DNA of 64,000 nt, taken from assembly GCF_056746865.1 (NCBI RefSeq), contig NZ_CM163382.1, one strand, 5' to 3'. The position numbers were made by a program, and so were the translations under genes. Shown one piece after another: positions 34,341 through 39,796 of this stretch (its first letter is position 1; each line of letters opens with the position of its first letter). Under the pieces are notes generated by a model. The model was not told where the DNA came from, did no database searches, and saw nothing but the letters and a program-made list of their open reading frames with translations.

Positions 34341-35693
34341 GTGTTTATTGGTTTTGATTACGGTACAGCAAACTGTTCAGTGGCGGTCATGCGCGACGGT
34401 AAGCCGCAATTACTGAAAATGGAAAACGACAGCACGCTGCTGCCTTCAATGCTTTGCGCGCCAACGCGTGAAGCGGTAAGCGAATGGCTGTACCGCCATC
34501 ATGATGTTCCGGCAGACGACGATGAAACGCAGGCGCTGCTGCGTCGGGCGATTCGTTATAACCGCGAAGAAGATATCGATGTTACGGCGAAAAGCGTGCA
34601 GTTCGGTCTTTCCTCACTGGCACAGTACATTGATGATCCAGAAGAAGTGTGGTTTGTGAAATCACCAAAATCGTTCCTCGGTGCCAGCGGCTTAAAACCG
34701 CAGCAGGTAGCGCTGTTTGAGGATCTGGTCTGCGCAATGATGTTGCACATTCGCCAGCAGGCGCAGGCACAGCTGCCAGAAGCGATTACTCAGGCGGTGA
34801 TTGGTCGCCCTATCAACTTCCAGGGGCTTGGCGGCGATGAAGCAAACACCCAGGCGCAGGGGATTCTGGAACGCGCGGCGAAGCGTGCCGGGTTTAAGGA
34901 TGTGGTATTCCAGTACGAGCCGGTCGCGGCTGGGCTGGATTACGAAGCCACCTTGCAGGAAGAAAAACGGGTGCTGGTGGTGGATATCGGCGGTGGTACG
35001 ACTGACTGTTCATTGCTGCTGATGGGGCCGCAGTGGCGTTCGCGTCTCGATCGTGAAGCCAGCCTGCTGGGTCACAGTGGTTGCCGTATTGGCGGTAACG
35101 ATCTGGATATCGCGCTGGCGTTTAAAAACCTGATGCCGTTACTGGGCATGGGTGGCGAAACCGAAAAAGGCATCGCCCTGCCTATTCTGCCGTGGTGGAA
35201 TGCGGTTGCCATCAACGACGTTCCTGCACAGAGTGATTTCTACAGTAGTGCCAACGGTCGTCTGCTTAACGACCTGGTACGCGATGCCCGCGAACCGGAA
35301 AAAGTGGCCCTGTTACAGAAAGTCTGGCGTCAGCGTTTAAGCTATCGCCTGGTACGTAGCGCAGAAGAGAGCAAAATTGCGCTTTCAAGCGTAGCGGAAA
35401 CCCGCGCCTCACTGCCGTTTATCAGCGATGAACTGGCTACGCTGATTAGCCAGCAAGGGCTGGAAAGCGCCCTCAGCCAGCCACTGGCGCGGATTCTGGA
35501 ACAGGTGCAACTGGCGCTGGATAACGCCCAGGAAAAACCGGATGTTATCTATCTGACCGGCGGTAGCGCCCGTTCACCGCTGATTAAAAAAGCGCTGACA
35601 GAACAGTTGCCGGGCATTCCGATTGCAGGTGGCGATGACTTTGGCTCCGTCACCGCCGGGCTCGCACGCTGGGCGGAAGTGGTGTTTCGTTAA
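34341..35693 (+). CDS. yegD: Hsp70-family (DnaK-like actin-fold ATPase) protein YegD (450 aa, GTG start)
   Basis: ORF track frame 34278..35693; start placed at GTG 34341 giving (M)FIGFDYGTANCSVAV; Hsp70 phosphate-binding motifs (DIGGGTTD). Confidence 0.85.
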   Translation: MFIGFDYGTANCSVAVMRDGKPQLLKMENDSTLLPSMLCAPTREAVSEWLYRHHDVPADDDETQALLRRAIRYNREEDIDVTAKSVQFGLSSLAQYIDDPEEVWFVKSPKSFLGASGLKPQQVALFEDLVCAMMLHIRQQAQAQLPEAITQAVIGRPINFQGLGGDEANTQAQGILERAAKRAGFKDVVFQYEPVAAGLDYEATLQEEKRVLVVDIGGGTTDCSLLLMGPQWRSRLDREASLLGHSGCRIGGNDLDIALAFKNLMPLLGMGGETEKGIALPILPWWNAVAINDVPAQSDFYSSANGRLLNDLVRDAREPEKVALLQKVWRQRLSYRLVRSAEESKIALSSVAETRASLPFISDELATLISQQGLESALSQPLARILEQVQLALDNAQEKPDVIYLTGGSARSPLIKKALTEQLPGIPIAGGDDFGSVTAGLARWAEVVFR

Positions 35694-35705
35694 TTGAAAA
35701 CTGGT

Positions 35706-37652
35706 TCAGCAACGGCTTAAATCAGCCTGCGCCTGAGCCAGTTTTTCTGCCGCCTGACGTAACGGTTCCATCAACGGCATGGTCCGTGCTGGAGCATGAA
35801 GGCGGAATCGCTGCAACTCTGTCGCACCGACAGTCAACGCCGATTCCAGCCGATGTCGTTTGGCGGCCATTTTTGCCATTACCGCTTGTCTGTCTGCAGG
35901 CGTTACCGCTTCGTTCGGCCTGAAAACAAAACGGCGTTCGCAACTCGCTTTCCAGTCGATAACCGCCTGGGTCAGATGATCACCAAAACCTTTCACTTGC
36001 TTAACGCTCCGTCGGGTAACGTCTGCCGCCGTTTCAATACCAAAGGACCGTAACGCAGCTTTACGCGCAGGGCCAACGCCGGGAATAGAGGCAACATCAA
36101 TAAAAAATCCCTCCAGAAACTTCTGCTTCTGCCGTTCCCTTGCGGTGTCCTGAAGTGCTGCCAGAGCGCGTTTCTCTTCTTCCGGTAACCCGAGCATTTC
36201 GTCCTTCATTTTTTCGAGCATCGTCCGTTTGGCGATAAAACCTTCCAGCCCGCCCAACTGTTGGATCTGGCTGACTAAATGGTCATAGTCCATTTTCGCG
36301 CGATTAAACGCCTCACGACGTTGCTGGATTTCTGCTTTGTACGCTTTGCTTGTCAGGCTGCCAATAATCCAGATAGCCGCCAGCACAGGAACCAAAATAA
36401 TATAACGCGGTTCTGCCTGAAGGCCGCAAAGCAACAGCGATAACGCTGACAGTGCGATCTCAATCAGAATGATGTATTCACGCCGTAACAGGCCTAAAGG
36501 AAGCGGCCTGCCAGCAGCCTGGAAATGATCGGGTAATGGCAGTTGCAATGCTGGTGGTGCTACTGACGCCATCACCATTGCCCAGACTTTCGCCAGCACA
36601 AAATCACCGCCGGTGGTAATGACCTCTTCGCCGAGATCAATAAAATAGATAACGCCTTGATTATCCAGCGCACACCACGGGCAGTCAGTCAAATGACCGG
36701 GGTAAACATGCATTGCCGAAACGGTACATTTCTTTAACTGTTGGCGTAGAGAATCAAGTGCCGCTACCCACGCTTTTGCCGTCGGACGCCCGGTTGCCAC
36801 GCCACTTTCCGTGAATGCCTGCTGAAACATGGCTTCAACATCGCCCGGTAACATCGACAGCGGAATAGATCGTGGCGGCGGTTTTAAACCACGTCGCTGA
36901 TTATCTGACGCGTAGGCATAACGGAAATGGGCAATATCCGTCTCCAGTGCATTCCCCGCATCAGAGATAAGCGGCACACCAGAATAAGGATGCCGCCCAC
37001 CAAACAAGACGTGAAAAATCAGCAACGCAAGGCCAAAATTATCGTGATTTTCTGTGCGTTCAAAGCCGACAAATGATGGCAAGGTTTGCAGCTCTGGCGG
37101 CGTAAAATGCGACACGCCGACTTCGCATAAATGCAGTGTGCCATTGGCGTTAATCTGAAAGGAGTCGCTATCAATCAACACCACTTTGCTGTCACGGCCT
37201 ACCATAAAGCTGTTCTGGTTTACGTCACCCACGACATGCCCGTGCTCGTGAACCGTAGCAAAAGATGAAGCAATATTGCGCGCAACATAGAGTAGAAAAT
37301 CCCACGCACAATGAGGGTAACGTTGGCGACGATGTGCCGGGCTATAGATCATATGAATCGGTTCTTTACCAGAAACTTTTGGCATCATAAAACCGATAAC
37401 CTTTCCGCCTCGTCCACCGTGAAGCGTTGCCTGCGGCCAGGCGACATAATTCAACAATTGCGCGTCAGCTGTCGCAGCCATAAAGGCAAGTTTGTCCTGT
37501 TTTAAGGCGGGTGGCGGCGTGTGATAAATCTTGGCGACGCTATCGACAAACTCCTCGATATCATAAACCGCGCCTTCGCCACCTTTTCCCAGTTCACGCC
37601 CGAGAGTGGTCAATTCACCTGTCGATGTAAATACTTTTATATTTGTCTTCAT
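35706..37652 (-). CDS. yegI: eukaryotic-like Ser/Thr protein kinase YegI (N-terminal kinase domain, central hydrophobic segments, C-terminal helix-hairpin-helix-like repeats; 648 aa)
   Basis: ORF track 648 aa; Gly-rich loop GKGGEGAVY, catalytic-loop-like HVVGDVNQNS, DFG-like IDSDSF; C-terminal IPGVGPARKAAL and VKGFGDHL. Confidence 0.9.
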   Translation of the reverse strand: MKTNIKVFTSTGELTTLGRELGKGGEGAVYDIEEFVDSVAKIYHTPPPALKQDKLAFMAATADAQLLNYVAWPQATLHGGRGGKVIGFMMPKVSGKEPIHMIYSPAHRRQRYPHCAWDFLLYVARNIASSFATVHEHGHVVGDVNQNSFMVGRDSKVVLIDSDSFQINANGTLHLCEVGVSHFTPPELQTLPSFVGFERTENHDNFGLALLIFHVLFGGRHPYSGVPLISDAGNALETDIAHFRYAYASDNQRRGLKPPPRSIPLSMLPGDVEAMFQQAFTESGVATGRPTAKAWVAALDSLRQQLKKCTVSAMHVYPGHLTDCPWCALDNQGVIYFIDLGEEVITTGGDFVLAKVWAMVMASVAPPALQLPLPDHFQAAGRPLPLGLLRREYIILIEIALSALSLLLCGLQAEPRYIILVPVLAAIWIIGSLTSKAYKAEIQQRREAFNRAKMDYDHLVSQIQQLGGLEGFIAKRTMLEKMKDEMLGLPEEEKRALAALQDTARERQKQKFLEGFFIDVASIPGVGPARKAALRSFGIETAADVTRRSVKQVKGFGDHLTQAVIDWKASCERRFVFRPNEAVTPADRQAVMAKMAAKRHRLESALTVGATELQRFRLHAPARTMPLMEPLRQAAEKLAQAQADLSRC

Positions 37653-37852
37653 AATGTTTTAAGGGCAGTCATATTATATTTTAATGAATAATAACACTGC
37701 CCATTATAATTATTTCCATATTGGAAGAGTCCCACTCAAGAATAAAAATGATAATGCAATTTCATCAGGATACAATTCAACTCCAACCTGATAATGATTC
37801 ACTTCCACAGATTTTTTGCTAACTTTTACTACACAGGGATTCTGGAAAAAAG

Positions 37853-38314
37853 ATGAAAAAGATATTACTTATGTTGAGTCTGCTATTTTTTACTACCGCG
37901 GGCTTTAGTGAAGTTTCGGATACGTTAGTGACGGGAGGTTATGATAAACAAGCGATGTCTGACGCCATTCAACATGCGCGGAAAGAAACCGATCAATTCA
38001 TCGAAATTATGAATAAAAAAGATGCCGATACTTTCGCGGTCAAAGCCCCGATAACCGATCACGGAAGAACAGAGCATTTCTGGCTTACGGATGTCACTTA
38101 TTCTAACGGCATGTTTATTGGCGTAATAAGCAATGACCCTGGTATTGTTACAAACGTAGAATATGGTCAGGAGTGGAAAATCAAGAAAGAAGATATTTCA
38201 GACTGGATGTATACGCGCGGGGATAAAATTTACGGCGGTTATACCATTGTTCCTTTATTGGTCACCTATCCAAAAGAAGAAGCCGACGAGCTAAGAGCAA
38301 AATTAGTTCGCTAA
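37853..38314 (+). CDS. yegJ: secreted/periplasmic protein YegJ (DUF2314-type, signal peptide, 153 aa)
   Basis: ORF track 153 aa; signal peptide MKKILLMLSLLFFTTAGFS. Confidence 0.85.
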   Translation: MKKILLMLSLLFFTTAGFSEVSDTLVTGGYDKQAMSDAIQHARKETDQFIEIMNKKDADTFAVKAPITDHGRTEHFWLTDVTYSNGMFIGVISNDPGIVTNVEYGQEWKIKKEDISDWMYTRGDKIYGGYTIVPLLVTYPKEEADELRAKLVR

Positions 38315-38378
38315 CCAGCCATTATATTAATTGCTTAAACTGGCGGTTGAACTGTTGTCTTCAACCGCCATGCGATGT

Positions 38379-39140
38379 TCATTCTGTCCACAGCGCCAGT
38401 GCCAACGTTTTATCATCATCGGTACGCTCGTTTACCGCCGGGCCGGACAAAAACTGCTTTAACAATTCAGGTAATAAATCGAGTTGTTCCTGCGTTGCTG
38501 ACGCCAGCCCATTGAAAAACGGGGTAAAGAAAGGCACATGGGGAGAATTATCCAGCATATTTAACGCCAGCCGCTGGATACCATCCGTAAATGCTGCAAC
38601 TTTGTGCGCACGCTCAGTGCTGGTGAAAGTTTCCAGTCTGGAAACCGCATCTTCATCGGTAATGAAGTGCGTCATGTTGGCATATTCACCCACCATCGGC
38701 GTGAGCGGCAGTTGCAGACCGTGCCCCAAATCTACCACCACGCCGCCATCGCCAATCTGCATAATCAAGGTGCCGTCAGGCGATGAAATCAGTCCCAGAA
38801 ATGTGCAGGCAAAATCGCGAACCGCTAATTCTTTGGCTTCCGCCTCGGCAAAAAGTCGCTGACGAATGGTCAGCACAATATCCGTGGCGAGGACATCATT
38901 AAGCCCCAATTCCCCGCCCTGCACTTTTTGCGACATATAAGCCATCGCTTCATTGACGGCGAGCATCGCGCCTTCGCCACCCTGCGAGACACTGCCTGCG
39001 CCATCAGCGACAAATACCGACAATAATGGCTGCTGGTCATTTAACCAGGCAACCTGCATCTGGCAGGCATCCTGGCAAGGCAAGTCCGCGCTGATGTGCG
39101 ACGTTCCAACGGTTGATGCATAGACCAGACGCCAGCTCAC
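38379..39140 (-). CDS. yegK: PP2C-family Ser/Thr protein phosphatase YegK/PphC (253 aa)
   Basis: ORF track 253 aa; PP2C-like N-terminus ([20 protein letters not shown]). Confidence 0.9.
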
Positions 39141-39796
39141 ACTGACGTCCAGCCTTTTGGCGCTTCCAGCACAACTTCCGTTCCCGGCGTGGAGCGGGAA
39201 ACCGAACGCAGCGAACTGGATAACCAGCTAAACAGTTCACGGAATTGTAATCCCTGCAGTGGCAAAGGCTGACGAACGCTGATTTGTGCCAAAGTCTTCA
39301 TATCCGCCCCCTGAACACCGATGGAAAAGAAGGCAAACTTCTTATCTTCTTCCCCCTGAAACACTTTGTTGGCGGCAGCCTGCCACTCATCGGTTGGTGC
39401 GCCATCAGTGATCAGGAAAATCCACGGACGATAATAGGAAATACCATTGGCGCGATACTCACGTTTGCGCTCCTCAACCATATCCAGGGCTTTGGTAATG
39501 GCGGCCCCCATTGGTGTATCGCCTTGGGCAAACAGGATGGGCGGGAAAAAATTAGCGGCGCTGGTAAAGGGTTGTTCCACATGCACCGGGCCGAACGTCA
39601 CAATGCCGAGTTCCACTCTTTTTAAGGCCAGCGAATCGGCAAGCAGCTCATCGCGAAAGGTAACCAATCCGGCGTTAAGTTCATTAATAGGTCTACCGTT
39701 CATAGAACCAGAAACATCCAGCAGCAAAATGCAGGGGCAACGTGGTTCCGGGTTACTGGCAAAATCGCTGGTGGCAAACATGATTTGTTCGCTCAT
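39137..39796 (-). CDS. yegL: von Willebrand factor A (vWA) domain protein YegL (TerY-like, 219 aa)
   Basis: ORF track 219 aa; MIDAS motif DVSGSM; 4-nt overlap with yegK. Confidence 0.9.

Follow-up and report, generated by a model that had tools for sequence, protein, structure and literature searches.

The inner-membrane kinase YegI of Escherichia coli carries a cytoplasmic (HhH)2 domain and is encoded in a TerY-P-type gene triad

What does the C-terminal tail of the Escherichia coli kinase YegI do, and could it bring a signalling enzyme of the inner membrane into contact with DNA? The question is raised by a stretch of 64,000 nucleotides (NCBI RefSeq assembly GCF_056746865.1, contig NZ_CM163382.1), here called the window, which contains the gene yegI. 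The original prediction, made from the letters alone, had read the protein as a kinase core followed by two long hydrophobic stretches and a charged tail with two motifs resembling helix-hairpin-helix (HhH) nucleic-acid-binding units, and it had proposed that the protein senses incoming or damaged DNA and signals its presence. The encoded protein shares 99% identity with database entries that bear the name 'protein kinase YegI', and the gene is annotated as yegI in RefSeq E. coli genomes. YegI, which is among the very few Hanks-type kinases of E. coli, is thus a known protein; its kinase activity, its topology and the kinase plus HhH label are already known as well. We find that the two glycine-hydrophobic-glycine (GhG) motifs of the tail are the two hairpins of one (HhH)2 domain, spanning residues ~517-575 and set between two helical arms. 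The gene and the parts of the tail are:

35706 to 37652, minus strand: yegI, 648 residues, inner-membrane Ser/Thr kinase with a cytoplasmic HhH tail (open reading frame and identity)
36111 to 36353, minus strand: outgoing helical arm, residues 434-514, with helices 417-467, 469-487, 489-502 and 504-514 (AlphaFold2, AF2, model)
35928 to 36104, minus strand: (HhH)2 domain, residues 517-575 (Pfam, profile and model)
35712 to 35900, minus strand: returning helical arm, residues 585-647, with helices 585-607 and 609-647 (AF2 model)

Hairpin 1 is formed by G525-V-G527 within IPGVGPARKAAL (residues 523-534) and hairpin 2 by G555-F-G557 within VKGFGDHL (553-560); the linker SFGIETAADV joins them, and the whole agrees with the (HhH)2 layout of two hairpin motifs with a linker helix in one domain of five helices and about 60 residues. 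Pfam HHH_5 matches residues 517-553 with an independent E-value of 7.6e-4 in the whole protein and of 2.5e-5 when residues 495-582 are searched. For the comparison within the family we used a set of 66 diverse homologous segments, which are 40-76% identical to the E. coli sequence. HHH_5 was matched singly by 19 of these segments at E<=1e-3 and by 44 at E<=0.1. The profile built from all 66 retrieved, from all PDB sequences, exclusively HhH-bearing nucleic-acid proteins (best E-value 1e-3), namely the thumb of Pol IV/DinB, Haloarcula L32e, REV1, the C-terminus of UvrC, the N-terminal domain of RAD51 and Hel308; searched alone with phmmer against the PDB, the tail sequence yielded no more than a marginal RadA match and spurious repeats. 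An AlphaFold model of residues 495-582, built on the 66-segment alignment, has a mean predicted local distance difference test score (pLDDT) of 93.3 and a predicted template modelling score of 0.81, and it structurally matches the HhH domains of UvrC, RAD51/Dmc1, Hef, LigA and FAAP24. In the full-length AF2 model, the pLDDT means of 10-residue blocks in the tail (441-648) lie at 86-95. The profile search of the C-terminus, which had been set beforehand as a check of the original prediction, has therefore found an HhH fold, and the charged region with its two HhH-like motifs proved to be a real domain.

A resemblance of this kind could in principle be a chance match in a generic helical tail that has no specific function, and the modest single-sequence E-value (7.6e-4) together with Foldseek E-values above 0.1 would fit such a reading. 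Against it stands the conservation of the segment, which in more than 1,000 clusters exceeds that of any other part of the tail; both GhG hairpins are 79-97% conserved among the 66 members. Independent methods also converge on HhH proteins. Indeed, the HHH_5 matches, the PDB profile and the fold prediction at pLDDT 93 effectively refute a chance match, which we regard as hardly credible.

Is the domain built to hold nucleic acid? From residue 436 on, the YegI tail has an isoelectric point of 9.9, and the (HhH)2 core carries a mean net charge of +3.3 over the 66 members. Basic positions are conserved in the same set at R530 (92% K/R), K531 (74%), K568 (97%), R573 (71%) and R574 (68%). The (HhH)2 domains of UvrC, RAD51/RadA/Dmc1, Hef/XPF/FAAP24 and LigA, which share the fold and the GhG signature with YegI, contact the DNA backbone in a sequence-nonspecific manner. 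YegI differs from these proteins in that the identity is just 11-23%, that its domain sits between long helices of a kinase anchored in the membrane, and that it is without a DNA-processing catalytic domain. DNA binding by YegI, and a role as a 'DNA sensor', are plausible.

In the AF2 model, the second transmembrane (TM) segment extends as one helix to residue 467, and the helical arms likely form an antiparallel stalk with the (HhH)2 domain at its tip, away from the membrane. The returning arm carries the published tail autophosphorylation sites S604 and S646. Many relatives continue past the module with an extra TM segment, to which TPR repeats or an SH3-like domain are attached. Kinase-less relatives were seen as well; zinc ribbons at the N-terminus precede the module in these, and a TM segment with a TonB_C domain follows it. 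Examples of these variants are P0154, P0168, P0207, P0238, P0162, P0260, P0198 and P0251, together with L008:7001-9739 and L012:1865-4885. TonB_C is periplasmic, so that in the extended relatives the module must begin and end at the cytoplasmic side of the membrane.

A further homologue bears on the function of the tail. In the protein of 719 residues encoded on the Sphingomonas panacis plasmid NZ_CP014169.1 (L006:4690-6849), the module is immediately followed by a C4 zinc finger of the topoisomerase type (CPQC...CTRYPTC), and the gene of this protein sits in a vWA-PP2C-kinase operon (von Willebrand factor A protein, protein phosphatase 2C and kinase) on this conjugative plasmid. By its sequence, this zinc finger would give the tail a second nucleic-acid-binding domain, and among the comparative evidence we regard it as the strongest pointer to a tail that handles nucleic acid.

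The same fold can, however, be read differently. SAM domains, the NusA AR domain and the α-CTD of RNA polymerase are among the fold matches, and the (HhH)2/SAM-like fold also serves protein-protein contacts. This keeps open the main rival explanation, in which the (HhH)2 domain is a SAM-like protein-interaction or oligomerisation module that, together with the arms, dimerises YegI or docks PphC, YegL or substrates, with no nucleic acid involved. We think this rather unlikely, if well worth carrying along. YegI has two canonical GhG hairpins and matches Pfam HHH_5, not the SAM families, and the PDB profile matches are exclusively nucleic-acid-binding HhH proteins. Additionally, the conserved basic residues lie beside the hairpins, and a homologue adds the topoisomerase-type zinc finger described above.

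How is this tail held in the cell, and by what kind of kinase? The N-terminal and central parts of YegI comprise the following features:

36753 to 37652, minus strand: atypical Hanks-type kinase domain, residues ~1-300 (motif positions)
36663 to 36740, minus strand: probable CHCC zinc knuckle, C309-x5-H315-x8-C324-P-W-C327, residues 305-330 (alignment)
36354 to 36476, minus strand: transmembrane hairpin with TM1 393-411, the periplasmic loop QAEPR 412-416 and TM2 417-433 (hydropathy and published fusions)

The kinase motifs that had been named for the N-terminal core were all confirmed in place: the P-loop GKGGEG at 22-27 (GKGGEGAVY 22-30), with K41 in VAKIY, the catalytic loop HVVGDVNQNS at 139-148, in which D143 is kept, IDSDSF at 160-165 and TPPE at 184-187. 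In an alignment of 41 full-length homologues (57-94% identity), G22, G24, G25, G27 and K41 are invariant. Measured against the HRDxxxxN and DFG signatures, YegI deviates, since VGDVNQNS replaces the His-Arg and the Asn, and DSD (161-163) replaces DFG. Pfam Pkinase does not match YegI, the family profile finds no kinase in the PDB at E<=0.01, and the kinase region is poorly resolved in the full-length AF2 model (mean pLDDT 70.5). The kinase gave weak matches to the PD-T4-6 and MkoA kinase domains of PADLOC, and a kinase classification contains a 'Yegi1' family.

Rajagopalan & Dworkin showed that, even with its VGDxxQxS loop and DSD, YegI is active as a Ser/Thr kinase and prefers Mn2+ (FEBS Lett 2020; preprint 10.1101/819920), and we conclude that it is an atypical, experimentally active member of the Hanks-type kinases. 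The protein of that study and the one in the window are the same (99% identity); our residue numbers equal those of the paper plus two, and all 14 mapped residues agree in identity, so that the published K39D mutant corresponds to K41 here. Autophosphorylation was found at three activation-loop serines and two C-terminal serines and follows second-order kinetics (10.1101/819920), and PphC dephosphorylates YegI (J Bacteriol 2018; preprint 10.1101/303594). Activity, sites, kinetics, dephosphorylation and topology are hence experimental. The preprints 10.1101/819920 and 10.1101/303594 describe no HhH domain, zinc knuckle, wider family or DNA link, and the terms 'helix-hairpin' and 'HhH' have 0 occurrences in the former.

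Between the kinase and the membrane lies the CHCC motif, which is probably a zinc knuckle, metal binding being predicted from the pattern of its residues. All four are invariant in the 41 full-length homologues, and 52 of the 56 long representatives (clustering at <=50% identity) show the pattern. The YegI preprint 10.1101/819920 does not mention the knuckle. For TerY-P kinases, to which we return below, a zinc ribbon fused after the kinase has been described (PMC11090510).

The two hydrophobic stretches of the original prediction are indeed TM segments. Residues 393-411 and 417-433 are the sole strong hydropathy peaks in YegI, separated by a loop of five residues, and Arg and Lys border the hairpin on both cytoplasmic sides. 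Published PhoA-LacZ fusions agree: those at 340, 390, 439 and 646 were cytoplasmic and those at 414 and 432 periplasmic or within the membrane (paper numbering), which established that YegI crosses the inner membrane twice with both termini in the cytoplasm (10.1101/819920). The cytoplasmic sites 439 and 646, which are 441 and 648 in our numbering, lie in the tail, and the tail is therefore not periplasmic. A hydrophobic block of ~40 residues occupies the position of the hairpin in 53 of the 56 distant representatives; the sequence of the hairpin itself is unconserved in the 41-homologue alignment.

This last point bears on a second rival, in which YegI is an envelope or membrane-stress kinase that senses through its TM hairpin, and the HhH tail tethers it to the nucleoid or near DNA-bound substrates. 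Such a role would suit the relatives that add a third TM segment and periplasmic-type domains (TPR, SH3-like, TonB_C) after the module, the E. coli core locus, which adjoins the mdt efflux and bae envelope-stress genes on the literature map, and the yegI mutations that are reported to recur in long-term evolution lines. The periplasmic loop of E. coli YegI, however, has five residues, which together with the unconserved TM sequence speaks against a specific site for a ligand within the membrane. Moreover, the proteins that consistently accompany YegI, a vWA protein of the cytoplasm and a PP2C, do not belong to the envelope, and the neighbourhoods elsewhere are rich in nucleic-acid-directed defence genes. 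We judge an envelope-stress kinase quite unlikely.

These partners are encoded on the strand of yegI, from which they are separated by an insert:

38379 to 39140, minus strand: pphC (yegK), PP2C-type phosphatase (open reading frame, RefSeq annotation and published biochemistry)
39137 to 39796, minus strand: yegL, vWA protein (open reading frame and vWA annotation)
37853 to 38314, plus strand: yegJ, lineage-specific insert (GC content and absence in many E. coli genomes)

The 3' end of yegL overlaps the start codon of pphC by 4 nt (39137-39140). YegL has an intact metal-ion-dependent adhesion site (MIDAS), read from the translation as D27-x-S29-x-S31, T94 and D131. The 4.1 kb that run from yegI to yegL match E. 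coli CFSAN061770 with 100% identity and are present in 5416 of 5426 complete E. coli genomes, nearly always on the chromosome. Outside E. coli, the kinase is the third gene of an operon in which a short gene is followed by a PP2C gene and the kinase gene in all nine independent loci with enough upstream flank (L001, L002/L003, L004, L005, L006, L008, L009, L011 and L012), with PP2C_2 directly upstream of the kinase in nine out of nine. The first gene has a Pfam VWA match or a VWA annotation in seven of them (L001, L004, L006, L008, L009, L011, L012); the Pseudomonas loci L002, L003 and L005 have a gene of ~220 residues with no recorded family in the vWA slot. The order vWA-PP2C-kinase is thus conserved across Proteobacteria. 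L001 comes from Piscinibacter and L006 from the Sphingomonas conjugative plasmid. L005 is pQBR103 (NC_009444.1, 174668-178030), and L002/L003 are likewise pQBR103-type Pseudomonas megaplasmids; at L005 and L002/L003 the pair sits amid many small unannotated open reading frames, near RNase HII, a TraR/DksA-like protein and an HU gene.

The insert that parts pphC from yegI is a 726-bp stretch (37653-38378) with a GC content of 38%, whereas the genes on either side have 51-53%. Numerous E. coli genomes are without the stretch, so that the query matches them in two pieces with 81% coverage. B strains carry the operon in uninterrupted form. The literature describes yegJ as K-lineage-specific and reports that YegJ overproduction induces yegD and that YegJ interacts with RNase E. 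We conclude that yegJ is outside the conserved system. Further neighbours of yegI in the window are dgcE/yegE, alkA and yegD. The plus-strand gene yegD, which encodes an Hsp70-like protein, converges with yegI at 35693-35706, with 12 bp separating the stop codons. YegD was considered as a partner of the system and rejected, as none of the non-E. coli loci examined contains it. A scan for promoters and terminators around yegI gave nothing above shuffled expectation and no terminator-like hairpin above chance.

Does the triad belong to a known system? TerY-P triads comprise a TerY-like vWA protein, a PP2C and a Ser/Thr kinase and are a predicted phosphorylation switch tied to DNA-processing and restriction systems. 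They were reportedly defined by Anantharaman, Iyer and Aravind in 2012, and an HhH-fused subtype may be listed there already. One TerY-P form is experimentally anti-phage (the system of Gao et al. 2020). The yegL-pphC-yegI genes resemble TerY-P in the three-gene vWA, PP2C and kinase operon, in a putative zinc-binding element after the kinase and in the association with restriction and DNA-processing genes; additionally, some TerY-P forms carry a nucleic-acid-binding domain on the kinase. They differ in the domains that the kinase bears: the tested TerY-P kinase has an OB fold and those linked to CoCoNuT have a zinc ribbon (PMC11090510), whereas YegI has the membrane hairpin and the tail of helical arms and (HhH)2. 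On gene content, with a MIDAS-bearing vWA gene and a PP2C gene beside the kinase gene (here split by yegJ), yegL-pphC-yegI is a TerY-P-type triad, and it is not a member of the experimentally validated system.

Another comparison concerns the design of the protein. DisA is likewise a signalling enzyme with a helical spine and a terminal HhH domain that reports on DNA, and the HhH domain of M. tuberculosis DisA is among the Foldseek matches (rank 42). DisA is, however, a diadenylate cyclase and not a protein kinase, it is soluble and octameric, and the homology is limited to the HhH domain. The resemblance is an analogy of design, not membership.

What, then, do the neighbours of the triad suggest? 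Outside E. coli, the operon is often found beside restriction, BREX, CBASS, Wadjet or nuclease genes, or on megaplasmids. In Piscinibacter (L001) the neighbours are an SNase gene on the same strand, which lies upstream of the vWA gene (L001:5932-6474), and genes for a ScoMcrA-like protein, an SLFN-type helicase, BrxR and JetB. AbiJ neighbours the operon at L004, SMODS and pP_pnuc at L008, and GmrSD, a NERD-kinase giant protein and an MmeI-type methyltransferase at L009. On the metagenome contig L011, a Mrr_cat/NA-iREase1 nuclease gene (L011:3636-4388) follows the kinase gene after 28 nt on the same strand. The SNase gene of L001 and the Mrr_cat gene of L011 are candidate effectors of the triad. 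In E. coli, YegI and YegL were both listed as DNA-damage-up when overproduced (preprint 10.1101/354589), which lends the sensor reading indirect support. The literature searched contains no experiment on yegL-pphC-yegI and phage.

Our best explanation, which we hold tentatively and place a little below an even chance, is that YegI is the kinase of a TerY-P-type three-gene switch whose activation is driven by nucleic-acid binding through the (HhH)2 tip. The two helical arms would form an antiparallel stalk holding the basic (HhH)2 domain off the membrane, and the domain would bind the nucleic-acid backbone without sequence specificity. DNA bound near the inner membrane, for example during phage injection or conjugation, would gather YegI molecules, which would then trans-autophosphorylate. 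PphC would reset the switch, and YegL may act as a metal-dependent adaptor, substrate or target. The output would be a stress or defence response and not housekeeping signalling. DNA binding, clustering and output are what we infer here. In its broadest form, the proposal would make the YegI family a widespread membrane-anchored nucleic-acid sensor kinase, in which the stalk shows the (HhH)2 domain to DNA that reaches the cytoplasmic face of the inner membrane by injection of a phage genome or by conjugative transfer, and clustering triggers a defence signal gated by vWA and PP2C; this we consider unlikely.

Several observations weigh against our best explanation, besides the SAM-like fold matches and the protein contacts made by this fold that were discussed above. 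In the literature searched, no experiment reports binding of YegI to DNA. The Foldseek E-values of the (HhH)2 model all exceed 0.1, and the HhH sequence E-values reach merely 1e-3 to 1e-5, as expected of a domain of 60 residues. The association with defence islands consists of a handful of loci and carries no statistical test, and overproducing any membrane protein could in general give rise to a DNA-damage-up phenotype. The triad belongs to the core gene set of E. coli (5416/5426 genomes), unlike typical variable defence cassettes, and the yegI locus is reported to be barely expressed in laboratory conditions. In K-lineage strains, including that of the window, the operon is split by the low-GC yegJ insert. 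Core status, low expression and the split all speak against a classic defence role in E. coli. Finally, neither YegI nor PphC is recognised by the PADLOC models built for the tested TerY-P system, and YegL reaches the TerY model with an E-value of 0.013 only.

How widespread is this architecture? A search with the tail among representatives at 50% identity gave 2084 clusters at E<=1e-3, of which 1265 also pass E<=1e-10. Most of the matches listed have ~640-655 residues with the module at ~437-645 and share the architecture of YegI. The tail is also encoded on 66 plasmid records, chiefly large conjugative plasmids of Agrobacterium, Rhizobium and Pseudomonas. It had no match in phage genomes, so that the module is not phage-borne in the collection searched. 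Public resources already name the family: COG4248, 'helix-hairpin-helix domain-containing protein' at NCBI and 'DNA-binding helix-hairpin-helix protein with protein kinase domain' at JGI. Compared with YegI as analysed here, these labels name the pairing of kinase and HhH; they are annotation only, without the helical arms, the CHCC knuckle or the membrane hairpin. The original prediction went too far in calling the architecture unusual, because it is found in more than 1,000 clusters, belongs to an E. coli core gene and has already been named. The combination of kinase and HhH is neither rare nor unnoticed.

As a sequence observation, the pairing of kinase and HhH adds nothing to the existing annotation. 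What we add are modest refinements: the single (HhH)2 domain between helical arms, the probable CHCC knuckle, the variants with a zinc finger, TPR or TonB_C, and the triad in defence-rich neighbourhoods. A cytoplasmic, basic (HhH)2 tail that is conserved in more than 1,000 clusters, together with the defence neighbours, makes for a concrete and cheap experiment on DNA binding. If the sensor reading is true, yegL-pphC-yegI would be a core-genome immune sensor in E. coli, and YegI would be the first bacterial Ser/Thr kinase that is directly activated by DNA.

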